Shown here: positions 6,062 through 52,640 of the stretch, piece by piece
Position numbering within the stretch: position 1 is the stretch's first letter
Layout: every line of letters begins with the position of its first letter
NCBI GenBank assembly: GCA_030390025.1
Contig: CM059432.1
Span: 43,216,001-43,280,000, forward strand
DNA length: 64,000 bases
Source of the DNA: Squalus acanthias
Lineage: Eukaryota
Reading direction: 5' to 3'
Position numbers and translations under genes: made by a program
The notes under the pieces: model-generated
The model's input: only the letters and a program-made list of their open reading frames with translations
The model's database searches: none
What the model was told of the DNA's origin: nothing

Positions 6062-6790
6062 ATGGGAACCATTTATTTCCTTTTCTCCTGGACATCAGAT
6101 TCGGACGAAGACCAGCCGCGGCAGCAGCAGCACCCGGAGCAACAGCAGCACCAACAGCAGGAGCAACAACAGGAGCGCCAAGCTGCTGCTCACCCACCTG
6201 AAGCTGCGCAGGCCAGAAGGCGCCAGCGCGCATGGAAGCCCGTCGCCGCAGGAGATACCCCCAAAACAGTGTTTACAGACAGAGTGTGGAGATGCCGGTG
6301 TTGGACTGGGGTGGACAAATGTGAGAAGTCGCACAACACCAGGTTATAGTCCAACAGCTTTATTTGAAATCACAAGTTTTCGGAGCGCTGCTCCTTCACC
6401 TGACGAAGGAGCAGCGCTCCAAAAGCTTGTGATTTCAAATAAAGCTGTTGGACGATAACCTGGTGTTGTGCGACTTCTCATATTTACAGACCGAGGATGA
6501 GCTACCTCAACATGACGGAGCAGCAATGCCAAAGGAGGCTCAGACTTTCACGAGAGGTAGTGGGCGACATCTGCGCAATGCTGCAGCAAGACCTGGAGCC
6601 CAGAGGAGCGGGTGGAAACCCCTTACCAGTGGCCGTCAAAGTCACCACCGCACTCAACTTTTTTGCTTCAGGCTCATTCCAGGGATCAACAGCAGACATC
6701 AGCGGCGTCTCCCAGGCGGCCGCACACACTTGCATCATGCAGATAACCGATGCCCTCTTTGCCATCGCTCACAATTACATCAACTTCTCC
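6062..6790 (+). pseudogene. Harbinger transposase N-terminal half (frameshifted, interrupted, truncated)
   Basis: [48 protein letters not shown] is homologous to the 15918-17069 transposase; the DDE region is missing. Confidence 0.9.
6285..6482. mobile_element. Penelope-like retroelement-derived palindrome (inverted pLTR ends) with degenerate hammerhead motif
   Basis: 81-bp inverted arms 6317-6397 / 6405-6485; target duplication TTTACAGAC(A/C)GAG at 6272-6284 and 6483-6495; closely related to the arms of 44238-44897. Confidence 0.85.
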
Positions 6791-8289
6791 AAGGACCATG
6801 TTTTCAAGACCCTGGCGACTAAGCTCCTCCATGGCCGTAGCCATCCTCTCCTCTACCGTAGCCATCCTCTCCTCTACGGTAGCTAGCCTTACCATGGAGG
6901 TAGCCATCCTTTCCATGGAGGTTGCCATCCTTTCTGTGGTGATGCGTTCATGCGCCAATGCCTCCACAAAGGCTCTGCTCATGTTAGCAATGGACTCCTC
7001 CATTCGCTCCACACTTGCAGCGACCCTGGAGACAAAACCTGCCAGAGACTCCTGCACCTGTTGCTGGAGTTATAGCACCGCTCTCCTTCTGGATGGACCC
7101 AGAGGCACAGGGTCGACATGCAGCGGAGCCGAGCTGGGAGAGTCCTGCGCCCTCCGACGAGGACTCTCCACTGCTGTTCCTGTCTCCACCATCTGCTGAT
7201 GCTCACTTGTGAGCTGTGATACGCCAGGTGACAACACTACTCTATCTCCCGAAGGTCCCACTGAGGTGTGAGTGTCTGCGCTGGTGCTGGGTGCGCTGAA
7301 TTCTGCTGACGCTGCACCCTCAGAGGTTGCAGCTTCCTCTGAGGACTCAGGCTGTTCCTCCTGGACAGTGGGGAGGGGGGCTGTCGATGGTCCTGTGGGC
7401 AGTAAAGGAAAGAGTTAGACATGTGAGATAAACGTTGCATGCACATTGAATTGTGCAGATGATCATAAGTCAATCTGTTAGAGCATCAGAATCAATATCA
7501 GTCACTCATGCAATGTCAATGAGAGAGATGAAAAACTATTCTGTCACCAGCTTGCTCTGATGCGCCCATCTGTCCGTCCCCCATATGCGCATCCTCCTCG
7601 ACTCCCACGATCTCCAGGGCTGCCTCCTCTGCAGTGGTGAGCTGGCTATTGAGGGTGGTCCTCCTCCTGTCCTCGCCCTCTCCCTCTTATTGTGGGCTCT
7701 CTTTTCCTGCAATGAGGGAGACAAGTGGAGTTTGAGTGAGAATGAAGAAGTGAGTGTAGAGAATCCATAGCATAGATGCTCAGAAGAACACAAAGATGGA
7801 GTGATGTCCCAAGACCAAGGGCCCTCCCTGTGTGTTGTACATTGTTGTCATTGCATCACAGTGATAGGGAGTGTGAGGGCTGCATAGTTGAATAGTTAAG
7901 TGAATGTGAACATACAGAGAGAGGGAATGGTTAAGGGTGCAGGGATGTAAGGGTCAAGTGGGATGTGGAGGAGGAGGTTGACAAAGCTGTGTGCTGGTGA
8001 TGAGAGACGATGGGGATCAGATTGAGGTTCATGGGGATGGAATACTCACTTTTCCTGTGCGGAGAAGGTCATGAAACCTCTTTCTGCACTGCAGCCAGGT
8101 TCTGCTGCACATTGATATGGCATTCACCTCCTGTGCCACTTGCAACCACACAGCTTTGGTCTGTTATGGAGGCTTTTTCCTCCCTGAAGAAGGAAACAGC
8201 ACTTCCCTATTCGCTCTTGCTCCCTCCACCAGAGCTTGCAGGGAGTTCTCATCGAAGCGGGGTGCACACTTTGGTCTGGTGCATGACAT
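6791..8289 (-). pseudogene. Harbinger Myb/SANT-like gene remnant (exons ~8289-8050, 7706-7548, 7392-6791)
   Basis: MSCTRPKCAPRFDENSLQALVEGARANREVLFP (then stop) ..CRKRFHDLLRTGK|gtgagt; exon 2 EKRAHNKRERARTGGG; exon 3 with 21-bp heptad repeats (ERMATxx) at ~6826-6935. Confidence 0.82.
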
Positions 8290-9313
8290 GGATTTTGAAC
8301 TAATCCCTCAGAAGTAAATAGCAAAAGTTGTAAGGCTGAAAAAGAACCAAGGCTGCTTGCAGGCCTTAGATGACATCATCAGAGGCAAGTTTCAGGACCA
8401 AAAGACTGATTGGGCCAGGGGTTCCCACACGCTGGAAATCAAGTGCCCAATTAGGGCAAAATGGCTCAATTGTCCCGCCTTACATCGCAGGCGGGATCCG
8501 GACCCGCCGACCACCTGACCCGATCCCAACCCGCCTCCACTGACAAAATCCAGCCCATAAGGTTTGAAAATCCATGTGTTGCATCGCCAGTGGTTATGCA
8601 ATAATCATGCCTGCTGTTGCCCTGCAGTGCTGACCCTGCCGAAGTTTATGGGGTCAGTGGCAGGGCAGCTCATTACCGTGGGATAGGCAGGCCCACCTCC
8701 CCAACAGGGGGGAATTGCAAATGGTTATCCAACCCTATGCTTGACCCCAGCCATCATCTCCTTGGCCTAAACCTCACCGCCAGGGCTCACCCCTACTCTT
8801 GTGGAAACCAGTATGGCTCACCTCACTGGGTGCATTGTCCTCCACTGATACACTGGATCCTGACTGAGTATAAGGAGCAGGAACTCCTGGCGTAGGGAGT
8901 CCCTGCCCTTGACGCTTATTTTCAGGAAAAGGATCATCAGGAAAGAAATTAAGGGGGAGAAATTCAGTATCGCCCCATTTGGGGCGCAATTATCGGCCAG
9001 GCACAAAGATTGGCGCCTGGTGCTAATTATCGCCTCCGACTGCAAACTTGACTTTTATCGCCCCTGGAGGTGATTGGAGCGCTAAATCAGGCGCTACACA
9101 CCTGTCTTAAGGCGTAAAGGCCGAGGAGCGAGGCGCTAACTCAGAGCGCGGGCGCAGCGCAGGTGCTGTCAGTTAGCGATGGAACACAGACACACTGGTG
9201 CCGGACAGTTCTTAAAGGGGAGGGTCGATCTTGCACTCCAGCCACACCCTGCTCATTGGAGCCTTGAATCTCGGCCTGGAGAGACCTGTGCCTAAATCTT
9301 CCAGCCAAGGACT

Positions 9314-9465
9314 ATGGAGAGGGTGAGAGAACGAGCTCAGCGCTTCAGCGAGCGGGCCTTGGATGCTCTGATTGGCGCGGTGGAGCGCAGAAGATCTATA
9401 CTCTACCCTGAGAGTGGCAGGAGGCCTTTGTCGCGCGAGTACAGAAGAGTGTGGAGGGAGGTGGC
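9314..9465 (+). pseudogene. Myb/SANT-like gene exon 1 fragment
   Basis: [51 protein letters not shown] matches 13679-13830, then fused to antisense transposase. Confidence 0.88.
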
Positions 9466-9811
9466 CGATTGTGTGCTCAACGATGTTCCTGGTAGCTTGA
9501 TGGCTCTCGTTGTACCGCAGCTCAGCAGGGGTGTTGGGCGTACGGAGTGGTGTCATCAGCCAGGTGCTCAGTGGATATCCCTTGTCCCCGAGAAGCCAAC
9601 CAACTGGCTGATGCGGTGCCTGGAAAAGTTCTGCCACAGTAGTCTGGCGCAGGATGAATGCATCGTGGCAGCTGCCAGGATAGTGGGCATTGACAGCGAG
9701 TATCAGCTGTCTGTGGTCACAGACCAACTGAACGTTTAAGGAATGGAAATAACAACAGAAAACGCTGGAAAAACTCAGCAGGCCAGGCAGCATCCGTGGA
9801 GAGAGAAAGAG

Positions 9812-9848
9812 AGTTAACGTTTCAGGTCGATGACCTTTCATCAGAACT
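9812..9848 (-). ncRNA. Minimal type I hammerhead ribozyme motif
   Basis: AGUU-CUGAUGA-A-AGGUC-AUC-GACCU-GAAAC-GUU-AACU: core boxes, stem II, stem I and palindromic stem III all present. Confidence 0.78.
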
Positions 9849-10559
9849 GGGAAGAGCCGGAAATCAAATAGATTTAAGGCCAGGGTAAAGCTGGGAAAAG
9901 GGGGGGGGGGATAAAGGAACAAAGGGGGAGATGAAGAGACATTAAGAGATATGCAAGGCTAGAGGTGGTGTTAATGTGACAGATTAAGGCTGAATGAAGT
10001 GTGAAATCCACTGGCAGAATGAAGGACAGCTGCCAGCTTCTAGGAGGAAAACGCAGATTGGGTGACCGCTTTGCGGAACACCTCCGTTCAGTCCGTAAGG
10101 GGGACCCCGAGCTCCCGGTGGCCTGTCACTTTAATTCACCGCTTCACTCCCACTCTGACCTCACCGTCCTCGGCCTATTACACTGTTCCACGGAAGCTCA
10201 GCGTAAGCTCGAGGAACAGCACCTCATCTTTCGTTTAGGCACGCTACAGCCCTCTGGACTCAATATCGAGTTCAACAATTTTAGATCATAACCTCAGCTC
10301 CAATCACATTTATATTTTATTTTATCCACCCTTTTATTTGTCCCCCCCCACCTTTTTTTTCCTCCTAGAAGCTGGCAGCTGTCCTTCATTCTGCCAGTGG
10401 ATTTCACACTTCATTCAGCCTTAATCTGTCACATTAACACCACCTCTAGCCTTGCATATCTCTTAATGTCTCTTCATCTCCCCCTTTGTTCCTTTATCCC
10501 CCCCCCCCTTTTCCCAGCTTTACCCTGGCCTTAAATCTATTTGATTTCCGGCTCTTCCC

Positions 10560-10596
10560 AGTTCTGATGAAAGATCATCGACCTGAAACGTTAACT
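10560..10596 (+). ncRNA. Minimal type I hammerhead ribozyme motif (one stem II mismatch)
   Basis: AGTT CTGATGA A AGATC ATC GACCT GAAAC GTT AACT. Confidence 0.72.
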
Positions 10597-11881
10597 CTCT
10601 TTCTCTCTCCACGGATGCTGCCTGGCCTGCTGAGTTTTTCCAGCGTTTTCTGTTGTTATTTCAGATTTCCAGCATCCGCAGTATTTTGCTATCGTTTAAG
10701 GAATGGAACCTCTTTCTGTTGCGGAAATCCTCGGCATTCTCATGCGGAGCACGCAAAGCCACATGCGTGCAGTCAATGGCGCCCTGCACCATGGGGAAGC
10801 CCGCTATCCTAGCAAAGCCCATTGCGCGTTCTTGCTGCTTGTCTGGGGTCATGGGGAAAGAGATGTACTCTTGTCTCCTTTTAAAGAGGGCATTTGTGAC
10901 CTGACGGATGCAGCAATGCACCACGAACTGGGAGATATTGGCGATGTCCCCAGTAGCAGATTGAAATGAGCCAGTGGCATAAAAGTTCAGAGCCACTGTG
11001 ATCTTCACTGCCACGGACAGAGACGTCCTGGACCTCAGTTGAGGCTGCAGATCTGGCTGCAGCAGGTGGCAGAGCTCAGTGACCACCTCCTTGCTGAAGC
11101 GCAGCCTTCGCAAACACTGCTCCTCAGACATAATATATGTGAATTGTTGGCGATATACCCTGGGAGGGTAAAGTCTCTTGTACAGAGGCCTGTTGGCCCT
11201 CCTCTGTCTGGCCATGATTGCCACACTCTCTCTGCGTCTCTGTGTCCTCCGATTCTGGTGGCGCAGGACGACGCCCCCAATCAGTGCAGCCCCCATAGTC
11301 TCTTGGCAATCAAAGTTATGAAGGCCAAAAACCAAAGTACCTGCAAAGTTATGATCAGTAGCCAAAACTATTTCACACAGCGTTGACTCAATGCAGAAGT
11401 CTCTCTTTCTCTCTCTCCGAATCTCTCTCTCTCTTTCTCAGAACGAGTGGTGCAAAAATGTCAACCACAGAGAAAGACAGGAAGAGGCCCCCTTTAAATA
11501 ACGCCCCCCCCAGCCCCACAGCGACTGGGAGTGTTCCAGTCTTCTGGTCGCTGGTTGCGCCAGGCGGAAAGGATGGGGGCACCACTCAATTTCTGCTCCG
11601 GGGCGCCACAAGGGCGTTGCACCCTCGTATGACGTCAAGATCTGCGTGCGCAGGAGATCACGGCGGTAAAGTTTAGCGCCGCCGCAAAATGTCTAGTTAA
11701 TTTCGCGAGCGGCGCAAACATCGCTGCGCCCAGGCGCTAGTTGCTTTGCGCCCCATTAGCGCCCTCTTAAGGCGCTAACGGGAGGCGCAACCAACTGAAT
11801 TTCTCCCCCTAAGTTTGTTATTTAAGTTAATCTATGGCACATCCATCATTACGATATTATTTGGACATTCAGGGAGGACAT

Positions 11882-12885: not shown

Positions 12886-13678
12886 AATGTCTTTTAACTG
12901 CTATACTCATGCACAATTGAGATGGTGGACCTGAATTTACGATCGGAGGCTTCCTGCGGACGGATGCCTCCGATCATCAAATTTTCTACGCATTTACCTG
13001 GTGGTCCAGGATATACGGAGGCTTGCGATCCTGGGCCTCTCCTGGTAGAAATGCGTTGAGGCCCACGTATCCCAGGGGCGCATGCGGTTCACAAGCGTCC
13101 CTGGGATCACGTGGGCCGGCTCAACCAATGAAAGAAGGGAATCCCCATTCATACTTATGGGGTTTCTGTACATACGGAACTCCAATGTCATAAGTATGAA
13201 TGGGGATGACTTAAAAAATACACGAACACATGAAATAAATTTATAAACACCATTACATATATAAAATTAATTAAAATAGCATTTAATTAAATATTTTAAA
13301 CAAAAATTTAACTTTTTGAAAAAAAAAATTATGGGGGAAAAATTAGGTCGCGCCCCATTTGGGGCGCAAATATCGTCTGGACGCGAATATTAGCGCCTGG
13401 CGCTAATTATCGCCACTGACTGGAAACTTCACTTTTACCGCCCCGGGAGGTGAGTGGAGCGCTAAATCAGGCGCTGCACACCTGTCTTAAGGCGCAAAGG
13501 CCGAGCAGTGAGGCGCTAACTCAGCGCAGCTGCTGCCAGTTAGCGAGGGAACACAGACACACTGGCGCCGGCCACTTCTTAAAGCGGGGGGGGCCAACTT
13601 GCTCCCCAGCCACACCCTGCTCATGGCAGCCTTGAATCTCGGCCTGGAGAGACCTGTGAATCCATTTTGCTGCCAAGG

Positions 13679-15605
13679 ATGGAGAGGGTGAGAGAACGAG
13701 CTCATCGCTTCACCGAGCGGGCCTTGGATGCTCTGGTTGGCGCGGTGGAGTGCAGAAGATGTATACTCTTCCCTGAGAGTGGCAGGAGGCCTTTGCCACG
13801 CGAGTACAGAAGAGTGTGGAGGGAGGTGGCTCAGAGCGTCTCCTCCAGGAGCATGGTGCCCAGGACCCATACTCAATGCCGCAAAAAGTTCAACGACCTC
13901 ACTCGGGTCGTCAGGGTGAGTGGCTTTTTCTCAATACCTCTCCATCCCTCCATCTCAACCTCACTCTATGGCCAGAGGGTCTTAAAACCCCAATGCACAA
14001 CACTCATCCAACACCTATGGCCCTTTCATGAAAGACACACACACATTCCACACTTTGCATACAGTAAGGGCTATTCACCTATGGGAGGCACATCAGGCAA
14101 GACCATGGCTGCATACAGTAAGGGCTATTCACCTATGGGAGGCACATCAGGCAAGACCATGGCTGTATACAGTAAGGGCTATTCACCTATGGGAGGCACA
14201 TCAGCAAGACCATGGCTGCATACAGTAAGGGCTATTCACCTATGGGAGGCACATCAGGCAAGACCATGGCTGTATATTTACTCAGATGCTGTCCTTTTTC
14301 TTACAGGCCAAGCTGGCGCATAATCGGAGACAGCAGCAACGGACAGGTGGAGGGCGGCCTCAGCTGCAACCCCTCAGCGATCTTGAGGAGCGCGTCCACA
14401 GGATTGTGGCAAGCCGGGTGATCGGTCCCGTCGCCACTGGAGACGCCGACCCCGTTCTGGACAGCAATGGTAAGGTCATCACCTTTTTGTCCTCTGTCCT
14501 TCCACTTGTCCCTCACAACACCAGCCTTTGACACTTTCAATCCAACTTGCTAACTCGCTGCACTTATTCCTCCCTTACTGCCACCCTGTCCTCACGCTAA
14601 AGCCACTCTTGTACCTCCCTGCTTTCAGATGGTGATTCACCAGCTGAGGAGACGGGCCCTGAAGCTGCCACTGGGAGTGAAGCTGCAGCCGAGGAGGAAG
14701 AGGAAGCCGGAGCATCAGTGCCACCCTCTCCCGAGGAAGCCCATGCCCACACTGGGAACACGCCTTCCCTGGAGGGGAGCAGGGGGGAAGGGTCTGATGA
14801 GGGTGAAGCTCCAGGACCCAGCGGGCTGCAGCAACGCCATGGGGGTAGGGAAGAACGGGGGCCTTCTCCCCAGAAGGAGAGTATGCCAGCGACTCCTACT
14901 GCAATGGACGCAGAGGAGGAGCGGCTGATCACAGAAATGAACACCCAGGCGGTGGGCATGCACACTGAGCTCATGGGTGCAGTGGGAAGGGTGCCCGAAT
15001 GCATTGAGTCACTGGCAAGGAGTGTGGAGCACTTCGCTGTAGCACAGGCGGATGCCACACTAACGCTTAGTGCTGCAATTCAGTCACTGGCTGCCGTGAT
15101 CCCATCTCTGACTGCTCTCATGCAGACTCAGATTGAGGCCACGCGAGCACAGACTGCTGCCAACCTCGATGGTTCGTTCACATGTCCCCGGGGCTCTCAC
15201 CGCGCCGCAGCAGGCCAGCAATCTGTTCTCCAGCAGATTGCTCCGGATGCTGAAGTGCTGCCCCGTGGGAGTGCCAGTGTGTCGGGCGAGCAGGGAGTTG
15301 CTGTCCTCTCTCACGATGACAGCATTCCTGCTGCCAACACTGTCACTTCTCCACTGCACTTGCCACCGCCTGTAGGACAGACTGCTGCCGCCCATGCAGA
15401 GTTGGTGCAGTCTGCAGCCGGGCCCTCCAGGCCCAGAACTGGTCGAGGCCGTCCTTCAGGGGCATCTGCAGTGTCAGGGTCTGACGATCAGCAGCCTTCC
15501 ACCAGCCTTGCTGCAGCCACTGAGGTCCCATTACGGAGGAGCAGTAGGGTTAGAAGCGGGGAAGTGCGCAAGGGAAGGAGATCACCCTCGAAGGGCAAAA
15601 AGTAG
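13679..15605 (+). CDS. Harbinger Myb/SANT-like DNA-binding protein, predicted 458 aa; exons 13679-13915, 14307-14469, 14629-15605
   Basis: Myb-like RF..LDALV..WREVA..RTHTQCRKKFNDL; exon 2 AKLAHNRRQQQRTGGG; canonical GT-AG introns (phase 0 then 1) join all exons in frame with no stop; basic C-terminus RKGRRSPSKGKK. Confidence 0.88.
14057..14274 (+). repeat. 54-bp minisatellite, 4 copies, in intron 1 of the Myb-like gene
   Basis: Unit GCATACAGTAAGGGCTATTCACCTATGGGAGGCACATCAGGCAAGACCATGGCT starts at 14057, 14111, 14165, 14218. Confidence 0.95.
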
Positions 15606-15917
15606 GAGGTGTGACAAAATGCTGGTCATTTTTTTATTAAAGGCCGAGGTTCATGGTCCAACTTTTGTTTAGTGTTTTGGACATTATCTCCAGGTTGTGA
15701 GAACCAGTTATGTTATTGACTGTTTTTTTGTGTTTATTTCTATGAGTTTGTCATGAGGAATTGACACACACAAAGTTTGTAAAATAAATAAGTTTCTGTA
15801 TTCAAAATATACATGGTTGGTGTTTGGAATTACTGGTGCCTTGGCCGGCTTAGGGGTTGCGTGCTGGGTTCATTGATGTTGTTAGCAATGGCAGAAGCCA
15901 TTTCCACAGCAGGGGCC

Positions 15918-17069
15918 CTAGAAGCGGCTTGCTATCAGCCGTTGACGGACGGCCCTTGCAGTTTCACCATTGTGGGCCGCCCTCCCGCCTTGGTGCTGCT
16001 GATGATCATCCTCCTCGTCCTCTTCCTCCTCCTCCTCTGGTGGTGCTCCAAGGCCTGGTGGCATTGGCTGGGTCCTGACGATTGCCATGTTATGCAACAT
16101 GCAGCACACAACTACGAAGTTGGATACTCGTTCAGGCGAGTACTGCAGGGCTCCTCCAGAATGGTCGAGACAGCAGAACCGTTGCTTCAGCACGCCGATT
16201 GTGCGCTCAATGATGTTCCTGGTAGCTTGATGGCTCTCATTGTACCGCAGCTCAGCAGGGGTGTTGGGCGTACGGAGCGGTGTCATCAGCCAGGTGCTCA
16301 ATGGATACCCCTTGTCCCCGCGAAGCCAACCAACTGGCTGATGCGGTGCCTCGAAAAGTTCTGCCACAGTAGTCTGGCGCAGGATAAAAGCATCGTGGCA
16401 GCTGCCAGGATAGTGGGCATTGACAGCGAGTATCAGCTGTCTGTGGTCACAGACCAACTGAACATTCAAGGAATGGAACCCCTTTCTGTTCCGGAATTCC
16501 TCGGCATTCTCATGCGGAGCACGCAAAGCCACATGCGTGCAGTCAATGGCGTCCTGCACCATGGGGAAGCCCGCTATCCTCGCAAAGCCCAGAGCGCGGT
16601 CACGCTGCTTGTCTGGGGTCATGGAGAAAGAGATGAACTCTCGTCTCCTTTTAAAGAGGGCATTTGTGACCTGCCGGATGCAGCAATGCACCACGAACTG
16701 GGAGATATTGGCGAGGTCCCCAGCAGCAGCTTGAAATGAGCCAGTAGCGTAGAAGTTGAGAGCCACTGTGACCTTCACTGCCACCGACAGAGACGTCCTG
16801 GACCTCAGTTGAGGCTGCAGATCTGGCTGCGGCAGGTGGCAGAACTCAGTGACCACCTCCTTGCTGAATCGCAGCCTTCGCAAACACAGCTCCTCAGACA
16901 TATGAATGTAGGAGAGCTGTTCACGATATACCCTGGGAGGGTAAGCTCTCCTGTACATACGCCTGTTGGCCCTCCTCCGTCTGGCCATCATTGCCACTCT
17001 CTCTCTGCGTCTCTGTGTCCTCCGATTCAGCTGGAGCAGGACGACGCCCCCAATCAGTGCAGCCCCCAT
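15918..17069 (-). CDS. PIF/Harbinger (HARBI1-like, DDE_Tnp_4) transposase, 383 aa from first ATG
   Basis: Uninterrupted ORF with [60 protein letters not shown] and CCMLHN motifs. Confidence 0.96.
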   Translation of the reverse strand: MGAALIGGVVLLQLNRRTQRRRERVAMMARRRRANRRMYRRAYPPRVYREQLSYIHMSEELCLRRLRFSKEVVTEFCHLPQPDLQPQLRSRTSLSVAVKVTVALNFYATGSFQAAAGDLANISQFVVHCCIRQVTNALFKRRREFISFSMTPDKQRDRALGFARIAGFPMVQDAIDCTHVALRAPHENAEEFRNRKGFHSLNVQLVCDHRQLILAVNAHYPGSCHDAFILRQTTVAELFEAPHQPVGWLRGDKGYPLSTWLMTPLRTPNTPAELRYNESHQATRNIIERTIGVLKQRFCCLDHSGGALQYSPERVSNFVVVCCMLHNMAIVRTQPMPPGLGAPPEEEEEEDEEDDHQQHQGGRAAHNGETARAVRQRLIASRF

Positions 17070-19054
17070 AGTCTCTTTGCAAGCAAAGTAATGAAGGACA
17101 GCAACTAAAGTACTAACGAAGTTAGGATCAGTAGGCAAAACTACCTCACAAAGCGTTGAGTCAATGCAGAAGTCTCTCTTTCTCTCTCTCCGAATCTCTC
17201 TCTCTCTCTCAGAACGAGTGGTGCAAAAATGTCAACCACAGAAAAAGACAGGAAGAGGCCCCCTTTAAATAGCGCCCCCCCCCCAGCCCCACAGCGATTG
17301 ATAGCGTTCCAGTCTTCCGGTCGTTGGATGCGCCAGGCGGTAAGGCAGGGGGCGCCACTCAATTTCCGCTCCGGGGCGCCACAAGGGCGTTGCACCATGG
17401 AATGACGTCACAATCTGCGCGCGCAGGTGGTCGCAGCGGTAAAGTTTAGCGCCGCCGCACAATCTCTAGTTAAGTTCCCGAGCGGCGCAAACATCGCTGC
17501 GCCCGGGCGTTAGCGGCTTTGCGCCCCATTAGCGCCCTCTTAAGACGCTAACGGGAGGCGCAACCAACTGAATTTTTACCCCTATATGTTTTAACGAGGC
17601 TAAAAATAAACTTACCTTATTGGACAGGATTTTTAATGTATAAGTGAGTGATAAAATTTTATTTTTCTATTTTTTAAAACTCTTATGCTGGTAAAAGCAG
17701 GCCTTACGCCTGCTTTTACCAGGCGTAAGAATTCCACAGCCTTTCAGCGGGCGGAAGTTGGGCAAAGGCCGCAGAGGCCCTTCTCCCACGCATGCATGCG
17801 ATCTGTCAAGATTCTTGACAGATCGCAACTGCCGGGTTTTAGCGAATACGCTTCACATGCCTAAACCCAATACTTGTGCAGCCCCTATGGGCGCGTACAC
17901 TCCTCGTACGCACCCGTAGGGGTCGCAAAATATGGCCTAATGTGTTTCAGAATTGACCAGGGGCCTAATTATATAAACAGAAAACATACATGGTAAGGTT
18001 GCTGTTTCAGTTCACTGCAGCAGGAAGTGTAGGCAAAGCCAAATAAACAATCTGCAGCACAACATAGATAGACTGGTTTGAACCGCAAAACTTACCAGTT
18101 GCTTTATGCATTGAGAATATATGGTGTACTTTTTTCCTTGCAGTGGCCTCACCATTATTTTTGGTTACTTTATTTTAGTTTCCAACTGAGATATTTGTTT
18201 GAGGCAGAAGATAAAAGGTAAAAGACGTTCTTTATAAGACTTGTTCTGTACCTTAGACTAAACATCTAAGCATCTTTTTTAATATGCAGTTTTGAATTGT
18301 TAACTATTATGATATGTTGGAAAACCATCCGATTTAAAAATAAAAACCCATTCTAACTTTACAAATATAATGCTGAATATTCTTTATAGCATGATACTTG
18401 GAAATCAACAATTTTGCATATGGTGCATGCTATCAGCAATATTAGAGTCAAGGTGAGTACGCTTCAATCTAGGAGCCAAAATTACTATATTTCCAAAATA
18501 TTGGTGAAAATCTGTTGCCATTTTTGAATTCCTATGTCATGGGAAGGTACACGGTTGAAATTTCTGAGAATGTGATTTTGTTTGCGGCAATGCAAATCTA
18601 GAAACAAATCATGACACGTGCAATAATGATCCTTTAAAGTTTCTCAAGGAGTAAACCACTATAAATGTTGTGAAGCTTATTAATGCAACTGTAGTGTGCA
18701 TAACTGTAGTGCAGAGTGGCTCAGCACTGCAGAGAAAATCTTATTTCAGCAACCAAGTGCTGCAGGGCCTCATGAAATCTCTAGGAGAGCATCACAAGGA
18801 TATTTTTCGTAGCAAAGACACCCCCTAAATATGCAGTCGAGGAGGCAAACGTGAGAGGATGTTACAGAGTTACTGAAGAGATGCTGAACTCTGTCTTAAT
18901 GACTAGAAGGACCGAAGCAAAAATGAGAAAAAAAGTTAAAAGACTTGAGGGCACCAAGGAAAGGTATAAATATTATTGTAAAGTAGCAGCACAGGACCTA
19001 TCTACACATGGCGTGCAACCGCACAGCAGTGCTGTTTCCTGAAGAAAGAGAATG

Positions 19055-20731: not shown

Positions 20732-23683
20732 TCATGTCCAAATTCCTGCCCGCTCCCCGTAACCCTTAATGCCCTTTACTTCTAGGAAACTGTCTATTTC
20801 TGTTTTAAATTTAATTAATGTTGTAGCTTCTACAGCTTTTTGTGGCAGCATATTCCATGGACCTACCACCCTCTGAGTGAAGTAGTTCCTCCTCATCTCA
20901 GTTTTGAAAGAGCAGCCCCTTATTCTAAGACTATGTCCCCTAGTTCTAGTCTCACCCGTCATCGGGAACATCCTCCCCGCATCCACCCGATCCAACCCCT
21001 TCACAATCTTATATGTTTCAATAAGATCGCCTCTCATTCTTCTGAACTCCAATGAGTAGAGTCCCAATCTACCCAACCTCTCCTCATATGACCACCCCCT
21101 CATCCCCGGGATTAACCGAGTGAACCTTTTTTGCACTGCCTCGAGAGCAAGGATGTCTTTCCTTAAGTAAGGACACCAAAACTGTATGCAGTATTCCAGG
21201 TGCGGTCTCACCAATACCTTGTACAACTGAAGCAATACCTCCCTATTTTTATATTCTATCCCCCTAGCAATGAAAGCCAACATTCAATTTGCCTTCTTAA
21301 TCACTTGCTGCACCTGCATACTAACCTTTTGAGTTTCGTGCACCAGGACCCCCAGATCCCTTTGCACTTCAGTACTCTCCAGTTTCTTGCCATTAAGATA
21401 ATAAATTGCTCTAGGATTTTTCCTGCCAAAGTGCATCACCTCACACTTTCCAGTGTTGTATTCCATCTGCCAAATCTCTGCCCACTTACTTAGCCTGTCT
21501 ATGTCCCCTTGCAGGTTTTTTATGTCCTCCTCACTCACTACTTTCCCTCCCATCTTTGTATCATCTGCAAATTTTGATATGTTACACTTGGTCCCTTCCT
21601 CCAAATCGTTAATATAGATTGTAAAGAGTTGGGGACCCAGCACTGACCCCTGTGGAACACCACTAGTTACTGATTGCCAGTCTGAGAATGAACCATTTAT
21701 CCCAACTCTTTGCTTTCTGTTGGATAGCCAATCCTCTATCCATGCCAGAATATTACCCCCAATCCCGTGATTTTTTACCTTAAGCAATAATCTTTTGTGT
21801 GGCACCTTGTCAAATGCCTTTTGGAAGTCTAAATACACTACGTCCACTGGTTCCCCTTTATCCACTCTATATGTTACTTCCTCAAAGAACTCCAGCAAAT
21901 TTGTCAAACATGACTTCCCCTTCGTAAAACCATGCTGACTTTGTCCTATTAAATTATGATTATCCAAATGTCCTGTTACTGTTTCCTTAATAATGGACTC
22001 CAAAATTTTACCTACCACAGATGTTAGGCTAACCGGTCTATAGTTACCAGCCTTCTGTCTACTGCCCTTTTTAAATAAGGGTGTTACATTAGCAGTTTTC
22101 CAGTCTGCCGGGACCTCAGCGGAATCCAGGGAGTTTTGAAAAATTATTACCAATGCATCTACAATCCCTACCGCCACTTCCTTCAAGACTCTAGGATGTA
22201 AGCCATCAGGTCCAGGTGATTTATCCGCCTTGAGTCCCATTATTTTACCGAGTACCACTTCCTTAGTGATTTTGATCGTGTTTAGCTCCTCTCCCCCTAT
22301 AGCCCCCTGTTTGTCCAGTGTTGGGATATTCTTAGTGTCCTCTACTGTAAAGACTGATACAAAATATTCATTCAGTGTTTTTGCCATCTCCATATTTCCC
22401 AACATTAATTTCCCGGTCTCATCCTCTAAGGGACCAACATTTACTTTAGCCACCCTTTTTCTTTTTATATAACTATAAAAACTCTTACTATCTGTTTTTA
22501 TATTTTTTGCTAATTTACTTTCATAATCTATCTTCCCTTTCTTAATCAATCTTTTTGTTATTTTTTGCTGCCTTTTAAAGTTTTCCCAATCCTCTGTCCT
22601 CCCACTAGATTTCGCTACCTTATATGCCCTTGTTTTTAGTCGAATACTATCCTTAATTTCTTTACTTAGCCACGGATGACTGTCCTTTCTTTTACACCCT
22701 TTTCTTTTCAGTGGAATATATATTTTTTGGAAGTTGTAAAATAACTCCTTGAATGTACACCACTGCTCATGTGTCGTCTTACCCTTTAATCTATTTTCCC
22801 AATCCACTCTACTCAATTCCGCTCGCATACCTTCATAGTCTCCTTTATTCAAGCTTAGCACGCTTGTTTGAGATCCAACCTTCTCACCCTCTAATTGAAT
22901 ATGGAATTCAACCATGTTATGGTCACTCATTCCAAGGGGATCCTTTACTAGGACATTTTTAATTAATCCTGTCTCGTTACACAGGACCAGATCTAAGGTT
23001 GCTTGCCCCCTGGTCGGTTCAGTTACATACTGCTCAAGAAACCCATCCCTAATACACTCAATGAACTCATCCTCAAGGCAGTCCTGCCCCATTTGATTTG
23101 TCCAATTAATATGATAGTTAAAATCCCCCATAATTATAGATGTTCCCTTATTACATGCCTCAACTATTTCCTGATTGATACTCCGTCCAACAGAGTTGCA
23201 ACTGTTCGGAGGCCTATAGACTACGCCCACTAGTGTTTTTTTCCCCTTATTATTCCTTATCTCCACCCAAACTGTTTCATTATCATGATTTTTTGACCCA
23301 ATATCATTACTCTGTATTACAGTGATTCCTTCCTTTATTAACATAGCCACCCCACCTCCCCTTCCTTCCTGCCTGTCCTTCCTGATCGTTAAATAACCTG
23401 GTATGTTTAATTCCCAGGCATTGTCACCCTGCAGCCATGTTTCTGTAATGGCCACAATATCATAACCATATGTAGTTATTTGTGCCATTAACTCGTCTAT
23501 TTTGTTACGAATGCTACGTGCATTCAGATAGAGAACTTTCAAATATGCTTTGTGGCACTTAGTTCCAGCTTTTTCACTTTTTACCACTTTACCTTTTACT
23601 CCACACACTCTGTCCCTTCCTGCCACGCTCTGATTAGTGATTCCCCTACTGCTATCTATGTCTATGACCCTCTCTGTTGTCAT
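20732..23683 (-). pseudogene. CR1 ORF2 (AP endonuclease + reverse transcriptase), 983 aa if the single TGA at 21284-21286 is read as Gly
   Basis: YLNARSI, ITETWL, MGDFN, SDHN, NYRPVSL, DFQKAFD, GVPQGSVLGP, KFADD; the 799-aa and 183-aa ORFs are in frame across KKAN*MLAF (KKANGMLAF at 47.6 kb). Confidence 0.95.
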
Positions 23684-23721
23684 TTTTATTTTTTGCTCTC
23701 TTGAAACCTCCCCCCCACTAA

Positions 23722-24678
23722 TTAGTTTAAAGTCCTCTCCACAGCCCTAGTTATTCGATTCGCCAGGACACTAGTCCCAGCACTGGCCAAGTGAAGTCCG
23801 TCCCAACGGAACAGCTCTCTCCTGCCCCAGTACTGGTGCCAGTGTCCCAAGAAGCAAAACCCATTTTTCCCACACCAGTCTTTGAGCCACGCATTCAACT
23901 CCCTGATTCTATTTACCCTAGCCAAATTTGCTCGTGGCTCAGGTAGTAATCCAGAGATTATTACCCTCGAGGTTCTGCTTTTTAATTTGGCCCCTAGCTG
24001 CTCAAACTCCCTCAGCAGAACCTCTTTCCTTGTCCTATCTATGTCATTGGTACCAACATGGACCACGACAACTGGATCCTCCCCCTCCCACTCCAAGTTT
24101 CTCTCCAGCCCAGAGGAGATGTCCTTAACCCTGGCACCGGGCAGGCAACACAGCCTTCGGGACTCTCGCTCTTGGCTGCAAAGAACCCTATCTATCCCCC
24201 TAATGATACTATCCCCTACCACTACAACATTTCTTTTTACTCCCCCCACTTGAATGGCCCCCCTTACCACGGTGCTGTGGCCAGGTTGCTCATCCTCCCT
24301 GCAGTCCCCGCTCCTATCCACACAGGGAGTAAGAGCCTCGAACCTGTTGGACAGGAGCAAGGGCTGCGGCTCCTCCAACACTACCTCCTGGATTCCTGTA
24401 CCTGCCTCACTCGTAGTCACACCTTCCTGTCCCTGACCACGGGCTACTTCTGAATTAGTTACTCTAATTGGTGTGACTACCTCCTGAAACACGGAGTCTA
24501 GGTAACTCTCCCCCTCCCTGATGTGTCGCAGTGTTTGAAGCTCGGACTCCAGCTCATCAACACGGAGCCGGAGTTCCTCGAGCAGCCAACACTTACTGCA
24601 AATGTGTTCACCGTGAACATCAATGGTGTCCACCAGCTCCCACATATTGCAGCAGTAACACATCACCTGCTCTCCCAT
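23722..24678 (-). CDS. CR1 ORF1: zinc finger / coiled coil / SGNH esterase, 318 aa
   Basis: CYCC..CSKC, heptad LEELRLRVDELESEL, VVGDS, LPGA, VHVGTND, DGLHL motifs. Confidence 0.93.
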   Translation of the reverse strand: MGEQVMCYCCNMWELVDTIDVHGEHICSKCWLLEELRLRVDELESELQTLRHIREGESYLDSVFQEVVTPIRVTNSEVARGQGQEGVTTSEAGTGIQEVVLEEPQPLLLSNRFEALTPCVDRSGDCREDEQPGHSTVVRGAIQVGGVKRNVVVVGDSIIRGIDRVLCSQERESRRLCCLPGARVKDISSGLERNLEWEGEDPVVVVHVGTNDIDRTRKEVLLREFEQLGAKLKSRTSRVIISGLLPEPRANLARVNRIRELNAWLKDWCGKNGFCFLGHWHQYWGRRELFRWDGLHLASAGTSVLANRITRAVERTLN

Positions 24679-24898
24679 TCTATGTAATTAATTAAAAAAT
24701 TTATTATTTACCCTTCAGTTAATTTATGCCAGCAGTCTCTGCTACACCACAGATACCCGAGAAACTATAAACTATGGAATTGAAGTTTTGTATAAAAAAA
24801 AGAGAAATACTCACCAACCAATCACTTACCTGCTTTCTGGTGACGTCACACTTCGATTTTATTTTACCTCTCTCCTGCTCTCGGCTTGGTGAAAGCCG

Positions 24899-40912: not shown

Positions 40913-42844
40913 GGGCTGGATTTTACTAACCTCGGCGGGTCCGTGGTGGGCGACATCAGTGGCGGGTCCCGACCCCGCTGCTGTCTCCATCTGAAATTAA
41001 TTTACCGTGATTGGACTTGTTAAGCCCGCCCAGCGCGTTTCCCGGCCAATTAGAGGAAGCGGGTCTGGTGACGTCATTTGATGACGCTTCCTTAGCCGGT
41101 TAAAGGGACCATGGCCAACTTTCTTTGACATTAGTGCTGTCAGTGTTCTACAGCATTAAGGTGCTGCAAACACTGACAATCACTGCACAGAGGTGCAGGG
41201 CTGCACCCAGGTTCTCCCATGACTCCCTCCATATGCTTATGGAGGGAGTCACAGCATGCAGGGAGGTCCTCGTCCCTTCCCATGGGCGGACGACTCCTCC
41301 CCAGGAGATCAACACAGCCTGGTTGCACATTGCACAGGAGGGCACAAGCAGGGATGTGGGCAGGAGGTCCTGGGTGCAGTGACACAAACCTTTCAATGAT
41401 CTCAGTAGATCACAAAATGTTAGTACAAAGCCACACTCAACCTCATCCTGCTGTGCCTCTCATCACATCCCCATCACTCTGCCTTCTGTACCCTACTCCT
41501 GCACATTCTAGACACAAAAGGCATCAAGGCGTATCGGGAGAGAGCGGGAATATGGTATTGAGATAGAGGATCAGCCATGATCATATTGAATGGCGGAGCA
41601 GGCTCGAAGGGCTGAATGGCCTACTCCTGCTCCTATCCTTACTCACACCAACTTACCTTGCACCTCCACCCATCCTGCTCTATCTACATTATCACATCCC
41701 TATCTCACTAGCCACCCCTTATACTCACCCTCATCCGAGTGTAATCATACCAACTAACAACACACAAGGGTAGGCACTTGGGTGTTTTATGCAATGTTCA
41801 TGCAAAGTTTCTGTTAATGTGGTGTCAAACATTGAAACCTTTATTTTCAACACTTTGCATTCTTGGACAGATTTGTGTGCACCTTTGGAAGTGGCTTAGT
41901 GAGTTGCAGTAAATGGTGAGACAAAATGGTAGCTCCACAATGGTCATGAGTGTGAAAGGAATGGCTTGGGCATTGTAGGGATGCTTTATGGTGTTGGTGT
42001 GGGGTGATGCCAACCTGACGCATCATGTGGCAGCCAGGGTGTACAGTGTCAAGTGAAGTAAATCTGGCCACTGTGAGGCCATCCCTGGCCTCCCAGGCAG
42101 CAATGTGATTGGGTGCTGATGCCCTGTGTCCTGTGCAGCTTCAGGTGATTGTGGAGAAGGTTGGTGTTGTTGTTGGTGCTACTGGTGTGCCTGGTGCTGC
42201 TTGTGTGCCTGGTGCTACTTGTGTGCCTGGTGATGCTGGTGTGTCTGGTGATGCTGGTTTTGGAACTGATCGTGGTGGGATTCTGAGGACTAAGGTGAGA
42301 GAGTTTCAAGGGCACCCATGCTGATGGAATAGATGGCAGGTGAAGTCGAGATGACAGAAGTGATCTGTCAATGGTGAGAGAGGTAATGAGGTCAGACTGG
42401 ATGGAGACTTGTGTAAAGACTTGCAGCATTCTGAATCCATAGTGGAAATGCAGCTTAGAGAAGCTAGTGGTTAAGGGAACATTTCTCAATCAGCTGGGAG
42501 CTTTGACTTGACATTTGAAGCTGTCAACTCATCAGCTGATTCACTGACCTCCTGCCTCAGCTTCACAGACAAAGTCTAGGCACAGCAGGAAACCGGTGGG
42601 CGACCTGTCAAATCCAAAAAGCTGTGAAAAAACCACTGATAAGTGGCTGTAAACAAGCCACTAATGATTTTAATTGCCCCCCCGCCACTGCGTGTCGGGT
42701 TTGCTCAGCGCTGACAGACCTGACATTTGGTAAAGGCGCGTGGCAGCAGGTTCACAGCGGGTTCCCGACCCGCTGGGGAAAAGAAACACTTTCCCACCCG
42801 ACCCACCACTGATCGCGCCCGCTGACCCCCACAAAATCCAGCCC
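40913..42844 (+). mobile_element. Harbinger deletion derivative (family C), complete with both TIRs
   Basis: TIR GGGCTGGATTTT / AAAATCCAGCCC, AAC target duplication; Myb-like exon 1 remnant (AAPRFSHDSL..REVL.P..AWLHIA). Confidence 0.9.
41509..41636 (+). mobile_element. Short CR1 3' end inserted in the family C element
   Basis: GGATCAGCCATGATCATATTGAATGGCGGAGCAGGCTCGAAGGG..CCTACTCCTGCTCCTAT; absent from the other two family C copies. Confidence 0.88.
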
Positions 42845-49470: not shown

Positions 49471-51036
49471 GGCCGCGATTTCACCTACCGAGACGAGTCT
49501 GGTGCGGCCGGGGCCGGCGGTGGGGTGCGACCCCACTGCTGGCTCTAGCCCACTCTGTGAAATGATCTTATGATGATTGGGCTTGTTAAGCCCGCCCAGC
49601 GCGTTTCCCAGCCAATTGAAGGAAGCGGATCTGATGATGTCACTTGATGACGCGTCATCAGCCGGTTTCTTTAAAGGGACCATGCGCAAATTGATTTTGA
49701 CAGTTCTGCTGTCAGTGTTCTACAGCTTTGAGGTGCTGCAAACACTGACAATGACTGCACAGAGGTCCAGAGCTGCACCCAGACTCTCCCATGACTCCCT
49801 CCATATGCTTATGAAGGGAGTCACAGCACACAGGGAGGTTCTCTTCCCTTCCCATGGGAGGAAGAGACCTCCCCAGGAGATCAACACAGCCTGGTTGCAC
49901 ATTGCACAGGAGGGCACAAGCAGGGATGTCATCAGGAGGACCAGGCTGCAGTGGCGCAAACCTTTCAATGATCTCAGTAGATCACGAAACGTTACTGCCA
50001 AGCCACACTCAACCTCATTCTGCTGTGCCACATATTACATCCCTATCACTCTGCCTTCCCTACCCTACTCCTGCATATCCTTACTCACACCAACTTACCT
50101 TGCACCTCCACCCATCCCTCTCTATCTACATTATCACTTCTCCATCTCACTAGCCACCCCTCACACTCACCTTCATCCTAGTCTAATCATACCAACTAAC
50201 AACACACAAGGGTGGGCACTTGGGTGTTTTATGCAATGTCCATGTGAAGTTTCTGTTAATGTGCTGTCAAATATTGAAATCTTTATTTTCAACACTTTGC
50301 GTTCTTGGACAGGTTTGTGTGCACCTTTGGAAGTGGCTTAGTGAGTTGCAGTGAATGGTGAGACATAATGGTACCCCCTGCAATGGCGATGAGTGTGAAA
50401 GGAATGGCTTGGGCATTGTAGGGATGCTTTATGGTGTTGGTGTTGGTGTGGTGTGGGGTGGTGTCAACCTGGCGCATCATGTGGCAGCCAGGGTGTACAG
50501 CATCAAGTGAAGTAAATCTGACGATGGTGAGGCCATCCCTGGCGTCCCGGGCAGTAATGTGATCGAGTGCTGATGCCCTGTGTCCTGTGCAGCACCAGCT
50601 GATTGAGGAGAAGGTGGGTGTTGTTGTTGGTGCTGCTGGTGTGCCTGGTGCTGCTGGTGTTGGGGCTGATCGTGGTGGGATTCTGAGTACCAAGGTGAGA
50701 TTTCTCCAAGGGCACCAATGCTGATAGAATAGATGGCAGGTGAGGTTGAGATGACAGAAGCGACCTGTCAATGGTGAGAGAGGTTGTTCCAATGAGGTGA
50801 CACTGGATAGAGAGTTTGCTCCAAACACTTGCTAGCTGCATAAAGCTTAATCTGTCTTCCAAATGCAGTAAGCAACAGCTTCTAACCTTGGAAAGTGAAG
50901 ACCTATGAAATGGGAGCTTTTGTAGACTATTTGCAGCTGTCAAGTAAAGAAATCATCACATGCTGACACAACACCCGACCTCCTTACCTGACGTGATCCC
51001 CGAGCAGCGGGGAAGCCATTGGCGAACTCTAAAAAT
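49471..51036 (+). mobile_element. Harbinger deletion derivative (family C), right end missing
   Basis: Matches 40913-42390 and 786-1826; open Myb-like exon 1 at 49751-49990 (MTAQRSRAAPRLSHDSL..WRKPFNDLSRSRN). Confidence 0.85.
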
Positions 51037-51933: not shown

Positions 51934-52640
51934 GGGATGAAATTAGGTGCCTTTGCGCCTCCCATTAGTGCCCCCCGGGGTCGCTAACAGGGGTGCAAAT
52001 GGCTTTGCGAACTGGACGCGGTGTTGACATCGACTCCCGCCATATTCGCCGGGAGTTTTGCGGCCGCACTACAACGTTGCACCCCAATCTCTTTCGCCAG
52101 GAGATCGTGACGCCATCACCATGCGCATCGCCCCGGTAGCGCCCAGGACCCGAAATTGACTTCTGTCCCCTGCAGCTGCGCCGGTCGAAAACACCGACAG
52201 CTGCAAGAGGCATGCATTGTGCGGCCAGCCGCTTTGGGGGCGATGATTAAAGGCGAGGTGGCCGAGGTAAGTAAAAAAAAACTTTCCTTTCTTGTTCCAG
52301 TTTTTTTCGCGGGTTCCTGCCCGCGATCGATCAGCTCGTGGATCGCAGCTGCCTTGGTGGTCCAGGTAGGTACTCTTTATATTGCAGAGCCTGCAGCGAT
52401 GGCCCTTCCCTTTAAGGGAGGGAAGGAGCCTTTGAATGCAGCAGTGCTGCACAGCCCAGTGTCCGCCCTGCCTGCTGCCGATTGCGCTCCAAGAAGGAAG
52501 TGGAGCGCTTGATTTAACACTTCACTTCCTTTTTGGAGCGCAAACAGGCAAATTTTTCAAAAGTTTGAAATCGTTAGCGCTAACTTTTCAAACTTTTAAA
52601 AATTAGCACCCCAAATGTGGCGATAGTGAATTTCTCCCCC
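51934..52640. mobile_element. Non-autonomous Harbinger-type element with family A-like ends
   Basis: Ends GGGATGAAATTAGG / GTGAATTTCTCCCCC, flanks TAA/TTA; left end resembles the reverse complement of 640-695. Confidence 0.78.

Follow-up and report, generated by a model that had tools for sequence, protein, structure and literature searches.

The PIF/Harbinger group of DNA transposons belongs to the PHIS superfamily, and a survey counted 88 families as potentially active, with both open reading frames (ORFs) intact, and describes the group as carrying DDE transposase and Myb/SANT ORFs, short terminal inverted repeats (TIRs) that start with GG and a 3-bp target-site duplication (TSD), with a reported average length of about 4.1 kb (PMC4482050). 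For the zebrafish Harbinger3_DR system both proteins were reported to be required: the Myb-like protein binds the TIRs and imports the transposase (PMC2836001, PMC9179366); as an earlier note on this DNA had stated, the activity was shown for reconstructed proteins (PMC2836001). In sea kraits, fully intact copies of Harbinger-Snek number 269 in L. colubrina and 1 in L. laticaudata, and this natural two-gene element has RNA reads over both ORFs (PMC8437027); with that report, vertebrate Harbingers that are both intact and expressed are already on record. Harbingers are described as expanded and expressed in newts (PMC5741667), the superfamily is listed in the whale shark and grey reef shark genome papers (PMC8455134, PMC12498223), and a review asks that cartilaginous fish other than the elephant shark be checked for Harbingers (PMC9179366). 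In the literature searched we found no detailed description of a full-length shark Harbinger family; the repeat tables that accompany shark genome papers may list the one described here.

Here we describe a full-length two-gene PIF/Harbinger element of 4,250 bp (13333-17582) in a window of the Squalus acanthias genome, the window being the whole stretch of 64,000 nucleotides that was analyzed. The element shows each of the features by which the group is recognized, namely a 3-bp TSD, TIRs (which here too begin with GG), a DDE_Tnp_4 transposase, a Myb/SANT gene and a dispersed, multi-copy distribution, and its length is near the reported average. It differs in its target, TAT, whereas the consensus TSD of the group is TWA (PMC4482050); a sister copy in the window has TAA, and TWA fits one of these two complete copies. 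With respect to the Nuwa groups, it is a candidate member of PIF/Harbinger in the narrow sense. With Harbinger3_DR it shares the two-protein architecture. Harbinger-Snek entered the snake by horizontal transfer (PMC8437027), whereas relatives of the shark family are spread over sharks and rays, a distribution that would fit vertical descent: the best 80 of 423 transposase homologues (120 of them listed) are all shark or ray proteins, with 46-66% identity, and from these matches the host would likewise be taken for a cartilaginous fish. Many are annotated as "putative nuclease HARBI1", with dozens per genome in Pristiophorus, Heptranchias and Scyliorhinus and none above 66% among the matches listed; these are transposon copies bearing the name of the host gene.

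We consider it likely, at a probability of about 80%, that the element is a full-length, neutrally drifting and probably inactive member of a high-copy PIF/Harbinger family that was once very active. It would have inserted into an older host repeat and then drifted, with both of its frames staying open by chance.

Structure and splicing of the element

The features of the locus are collected in Table 1. The TIRs, the TAT duplication and the limits of the element, as proposed in the earlier note, hold on re-reading of the sequence. The TIRs are imperfect, with matches at 11 of the 12 terminal bases and 13 of 16 overall; the left one had been described as less perfect than that of the sister, and it does differ, but the right end departs from the sister TIR as well. 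Contig joints that skip the whole element (for example, from 13325 to 17583) are found in the DNA run X2 and in X8 and X9, two runs that we presume by guess to be RNA (X8 shares its organism label with X2). In these joints TAT is present once, and the duplication is therefore genuine; the flanks are two halves of one host repeat. The empty forms derive from other copies of this repeat and say nothing on insertion polymorphism.

Table 1. Features of the Harbinger locus, in window coordinates
Feature	Position	Strand	Basis or remark
Sister copy, of a related subfamily	8953..11809	.	TIRs perfect over 16 bp; TAA/TAA duplication; large deletion inside the element; transposase with an insertion of about 945 bp
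Left half of high-copy host repeat	12950..13329	.	outer edge approximate; contig depth and joints
Left TSD, TAT	13330..13332	.	sequence and empty host-repeat form
Left TIR	13333..13348	+	13/16 bases complementary to right TIR
Myb/SANT-like exon 1 (Myb_DNA-bind_5)	13679..13915	+	private R25C at 13751
Intron 1, GT..AG	13916..14306	+	junction backed by colinearity with P0009
54-bp tandem repeat, 4.1 copies	14056..14276	.	within intron 1
Myb-like exon 2	14307..14469	+
Intron 2, GT..AG	14470..14628	+	spliced in family transcripts, X8 and X9
Myb-like exon 3	14629..15605	+	low-complexity tail, terminal stop; private changes at codons 216, 235, 443
Shared 3' region of the convergent genes	15606..15917	.	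poly(A)-signal-like hexamers at 15636, 15783 (+) and 15633, 15733 (-); motif match only
Transposase, DDE_Tnp_4, 383 aa, no internal stop	15918..17069	-	ORF and Pfam
Catalytic residue D176	16542..16544	-
Catalytic residue D252	16314..16316	-
Catalytic residue E288	16206..16208	-
Right TIR	17567..17582	-
Right TSD, TAT	17583..17585	.
Right half of high-copy host repeat	17586..17900	.	outer edge approximate; contig depth and joints

The convergent Myb/SANT-like gene, which had been read as three GT-AG exons encoding 458 aa, is borne out: the exons fuse in frame into 458 aa plus a stop, and exon 1 matches Pfam PF13873 (Myb_DNA-bind_5, E=3.9e-9). Exon 3 had no Pfam match, and a search with exon 1 among longer proteins gave one match in 74 candidates, too few for a conservation profile. 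The exon 1 and exon 2 peptides align to the consecutive residues 8-82 and 83-116 of a predicted sawshark protein (P0009). In P0009 the Myb domain is fused ahead of a Harbinger transposase, which may reflect a same-strand element merged by the gene predictor.

Splicing had been predicted for both introns, and one of the two junctions is seen in presumed RNA. A 159-nt GT..AG skip at intron 2 (14469/14629) occurs in X8 (depth 210.8) and X9 (depth 90.2), and was not found in the DNA run X2, for which the joints were counted incompletely; the intron 1 junction (13915/14307) was not seen among the 15 of 139 joints listed. In X8 an unspliced contig with a depth of 408.8 also runs over intron 2, and intron depth resembles exon depth, so that a large part of the RNA is either unspliced or read-through.

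Family size and changes private to the copy

The family is dispersed and very high-copy. In X2, 74,895 contigs align to the stretch, and the summed depth, which is no copy number, reaches 3e5-2e6 per bin within the element as compared to 6.57 for a flank contig. Dividing the depth of 348,927 at position 16831 by the largest overlap factor (31) and by twice the flank depth gives a rough estimate of ~870, and by this rough arithmetic the 16831 segment is present in hundreds to thousands of copies.

At a threshold of 25%, the places that differ over 5,301 bases number 89 in X2, 87 in X8 and 83 in X9. In X2 the element differs from the family majority at no more than ~83 of its 4,250 positions (2.0%), 6 of the 40 difference rows listed (of 132) lying in the left flank. 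Between 0.58 and 0.62 of its 31-mers are contained in 12 of the 20 runs, which would correspond to a divergence of 1.5-1.7% if the runs hold majority words only. Some 1.5-2% of the positions of this copy differ from the family majority. At the mutation rate reported for the epaulette shark (7e-10 per generation, 95% CI 1.4-14.1e-10; PMC10587355), 1.6% would amount to about 2e7 generations, a loose figure given the other species and CpG decay, but one that speaks against a fresh insertion.

The 31-mers are spread over organisms A-G. Horizontal transfer was not adopted as the explanation, as two of the three listed organism D runs lack the words and contigs were aligned for B only. The organism D runs (X12, X22 and X23, one study) comprise one with 0.59 of the words and two with none, which suggests mixed or mislabelled material.

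Changes private to the copy were read from the 40 of 132 difference rows listed, among which G173D, L76F and the TIR positions do not appear. The family letter accounts for nearly all of the X2 depth at these sites: 348,908 of 348,927 units at 16831 (L80P), 265,358 of 265,891 at 16321 (L250R), 97.5% at 16175 (R299C), 98.9% at 16625 (P149S), 99.0% at 16693 (A126V), and 97.6-100% at the Myb positions 13751, 14875, 14931 and 15557. The private Myb changes are R25C, R216K, A235T and R443S, most of them in the low-complexity tail. The listed coding sites with an X2 majority of at least 80% number 11, of which 9 are non-synonymous and 2 synonymous (16131, 16386), as compared to 13.4:5.1 (about 2.6:1) in a neutral simulation. 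The private changes therefore look unselected, near the neutral expectation.

Open frames can be retained under drift as well. When 4,000 copies were simulated neutrally at 1.6% divergence, 22.6% retained both frames, the DDE triad, the starts and the splice sites, and 1-5% stayed open once indels were added at an assumed one per 10-20 substitutions. A family of this size should contain some open copies even in the absence of selection, provided that a fair share of its members are full length.

The uninterrupted 383-aa transposase stands as it had been reported, with a match to Pfam PF13359 (DDE_Tnp_4, E=7e-38) and an intact triad, whose residues D176, D252 and E288 are the majority residue, shared by 100/120, 94/116 and 75/118 homologues, respectively. 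A search of PDB sequences gave five chance matches (best E=0.026), and Foldseek gave nothing at E<=0.001, its top rows (piggyBac, TnsB, integrases and Tn5) being generic DDE folds. Seven departures mark the protein: L76F, L80P, A126V, P149S, G173D, L250R and R299C. Among aligned homologues, R250 occurs in 0/116, P80 in 0/106 and F76 in 0/104, while D173 occurs in 8/120 and C299 in 13/117; at positions 250, 80, 76 and 173 the sister carries L, L, L and G. The reading VQDAIDCTH (G173D, with G in the sister) had been raised as a caveat and is confirmed, but several other changes at conserved sites had been missed, and L250R, L80P, L76F and R299C rule out G173D as the sole defect.

In an AlphaFold model (pLDDT 88.8), which says nothing on burial or activity, residue 250 lies in strand E248-250 just ahead of D252, residue 173 in strand E171-182, which bears D176, and residue 80 between two N-terminal helices. 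L250R puts a charge into the strand that leads to D252, L80P a proline between the two helices and G173D an acidic side chain into the first catalytic strand. Judged from homologues and the model, these changes probably impair the enzyme, and the transposase is probably dead or weak.

Transcripts, the sister copy and neighboring relics

Other copies of the family dominate the transcripts. In X8 the family letter takes up the whole contig depth at 16831, 16321, 16175, 16625, 16693, 14875 and 14931, and makes up 95-98% at 13751, 15557, 16131 (97%) and 16386. This may point to silence of the 13333-17582 copy; contigs lose rare variants, and missing private letters do not prove it. X8 and X9 share letters, uncounted in X2, at 16742 (where G110C replaces an almost invariant glycine) and at 17133, and a 2-base deletion at 16353 takes up the entire X9 depth there. 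From G110C and this deletion, broken copies appear to be the source of the main transcripts. The variant letters common to the two organism labels at 16742 and 17133 may mark one orthologous broken copy expressed in both. The raw RNA run X21 (organism H) was uninformative, its 33 partial reads all falling on a TC microsatellite.

The sister differs from the 13333-17582 copy by 11.1, 4.2 and 8.8% in three parts. At 7 of 10 tested sites it has the family letter, matching the copy at the other three (16693, 17443 and 17444), which rules it out as a daughter of this copy; it belongs to a related subfamily. Between the two transposases, 22 codons of 295 differ silently and 33 by replacement, a mild sign that selection may have acted on these lineages in the past.

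Within the sister, Myb exon 1 is joined directly to the 3' half of the transposase at 9465/9466, with an internal deletion of about 2.4 kb. Its insertion (9749-10694) is flanked by a direct duplication of ~15 bp, contains a 317-bp inverted repeat at 98%, and looks like a retro-insertion.

Relics of Myb and transposase genes at 6482-6790, 8056-8265, 41203-41409 and 49775-49981 are 38-49% identical in protein; they therefore belong to other Harbinger families and are ruled out as derivatives of the copy. The 64-kb window is rich in such relics of other families. It also holds two lone Harbinger-type right ends, at 589-695 (followed by CAG) and 52625-52640 (followed by TTA), with TIRs like those of the family described here, and on the minus strand (20732-24687) a CR1/L2-type LINE that is broken close to the 3' end and has an endonuclease-RT frame of 820 aa. 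The ORF1 of this LINE appears, from a motif, to be esterase-like.

Standing of the copy and of its family

If the mechanism described for Harbinger3_DR is carried over to the shark family, the Myb-like protein would bind the TIRs and bring the DDE transposase to them, and the transposase would excise the element and paste it at an AT-rich 3-bp target. A copy with a dead transposase could then still contribute, either by supplying its Myb-like protein in trans or through ends that are mobilized by another copy. The Myb domain retains its Pfam match and is largely spared by private changes, yet R25C lies inside it, and no RNA contig carries the letters of this copy at 14875 or 14931. Similarly, the TIRs keep most of their terminal matches, but both differ from the perfect pair of the sister. 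Two samples of organism A contain private words of the copy, consistent with a fixed insertion. Such a contribution we regard as improbable.

The earlier note had gone further and suggested a naturally functional element driving the local derivatives. That this copy is still competent for transposition, and mobilizes derivatives locally or genome-wide, appears to us very improbable. Its frames, triad and four splice sites are intact, the family's intron 2 is spliced in vivo in the presumed RNA, and the copy is among the best preserved of 90 near-complete homologues: of the 90 columns conserved in at least 80% it departs at 2 against a median of 10, with 7 of the 90 homologues equal or better, in a set composed mostly of decayed genomic copies themselves. 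Most annotated shark copies are less well preserved. Against competence stand L250R, L80P and L76F, absent from 104-116 homologues, together with R299C and the neutral-looking 9:2 of the private changes. The X2 depth is divided in the same way. The R250 letter reaches at most 533 of 265,891 units, more than one copy might give, whereas the P80 letter takes at most 18.6 of 348,927, near the single-copy level, and the private letter at Myb 14931 takes 0, which argues against an expanded daughter subfamily. The supposed local derivatives point the same way, the sister lacking the copy's letters at most tested sites and being 4-11% different, and the relics being far more distant; the X8 contigs are without its letters at seven sites and carry the family letter in 97% at 16131.

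Domestication of the pair by the host (a HARBI1/NAIF1-like co-option, with selection keeping both frames open, as in published vertebrate and insect co-domestications; PMC9392472, PMC9710019) is scarcely credible, since such genes are single-copy, lack TIRs and TSD and are under purifying selection, whereas here the TIRs and TSD are still present, the family has many copies, the 2/11 synonymous private sites are no excess, and the X8 contigs show no copy-specific RNA.

We therefore return to an inactive, neutrally drifting copy as the preferred reading. For the family the outlook is somewhat different: spliced Myb-like transcripts in two organisms, together with a divergence of only ~1.5-2%, make a competent master conceivable; its survival in the shark lineage, within the family though probably not as this copy, is unlikely but deserves mention.

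As a single copy, the element matters little and is an ordinary find. It does serve as a clean template for a Harbinger family of sharks, with exon structure, TIRs and target defined, and with majority letters that can be read from public runs. If a competent family copy were found, vertebrate Harbinger transposition would be open to study without reconstruction; a competent master would mean that a Harbinger is naturally active in a vertebrate lineage with a slow mutation rate, and would provide cell tests with a second two-component system from vertebrates.
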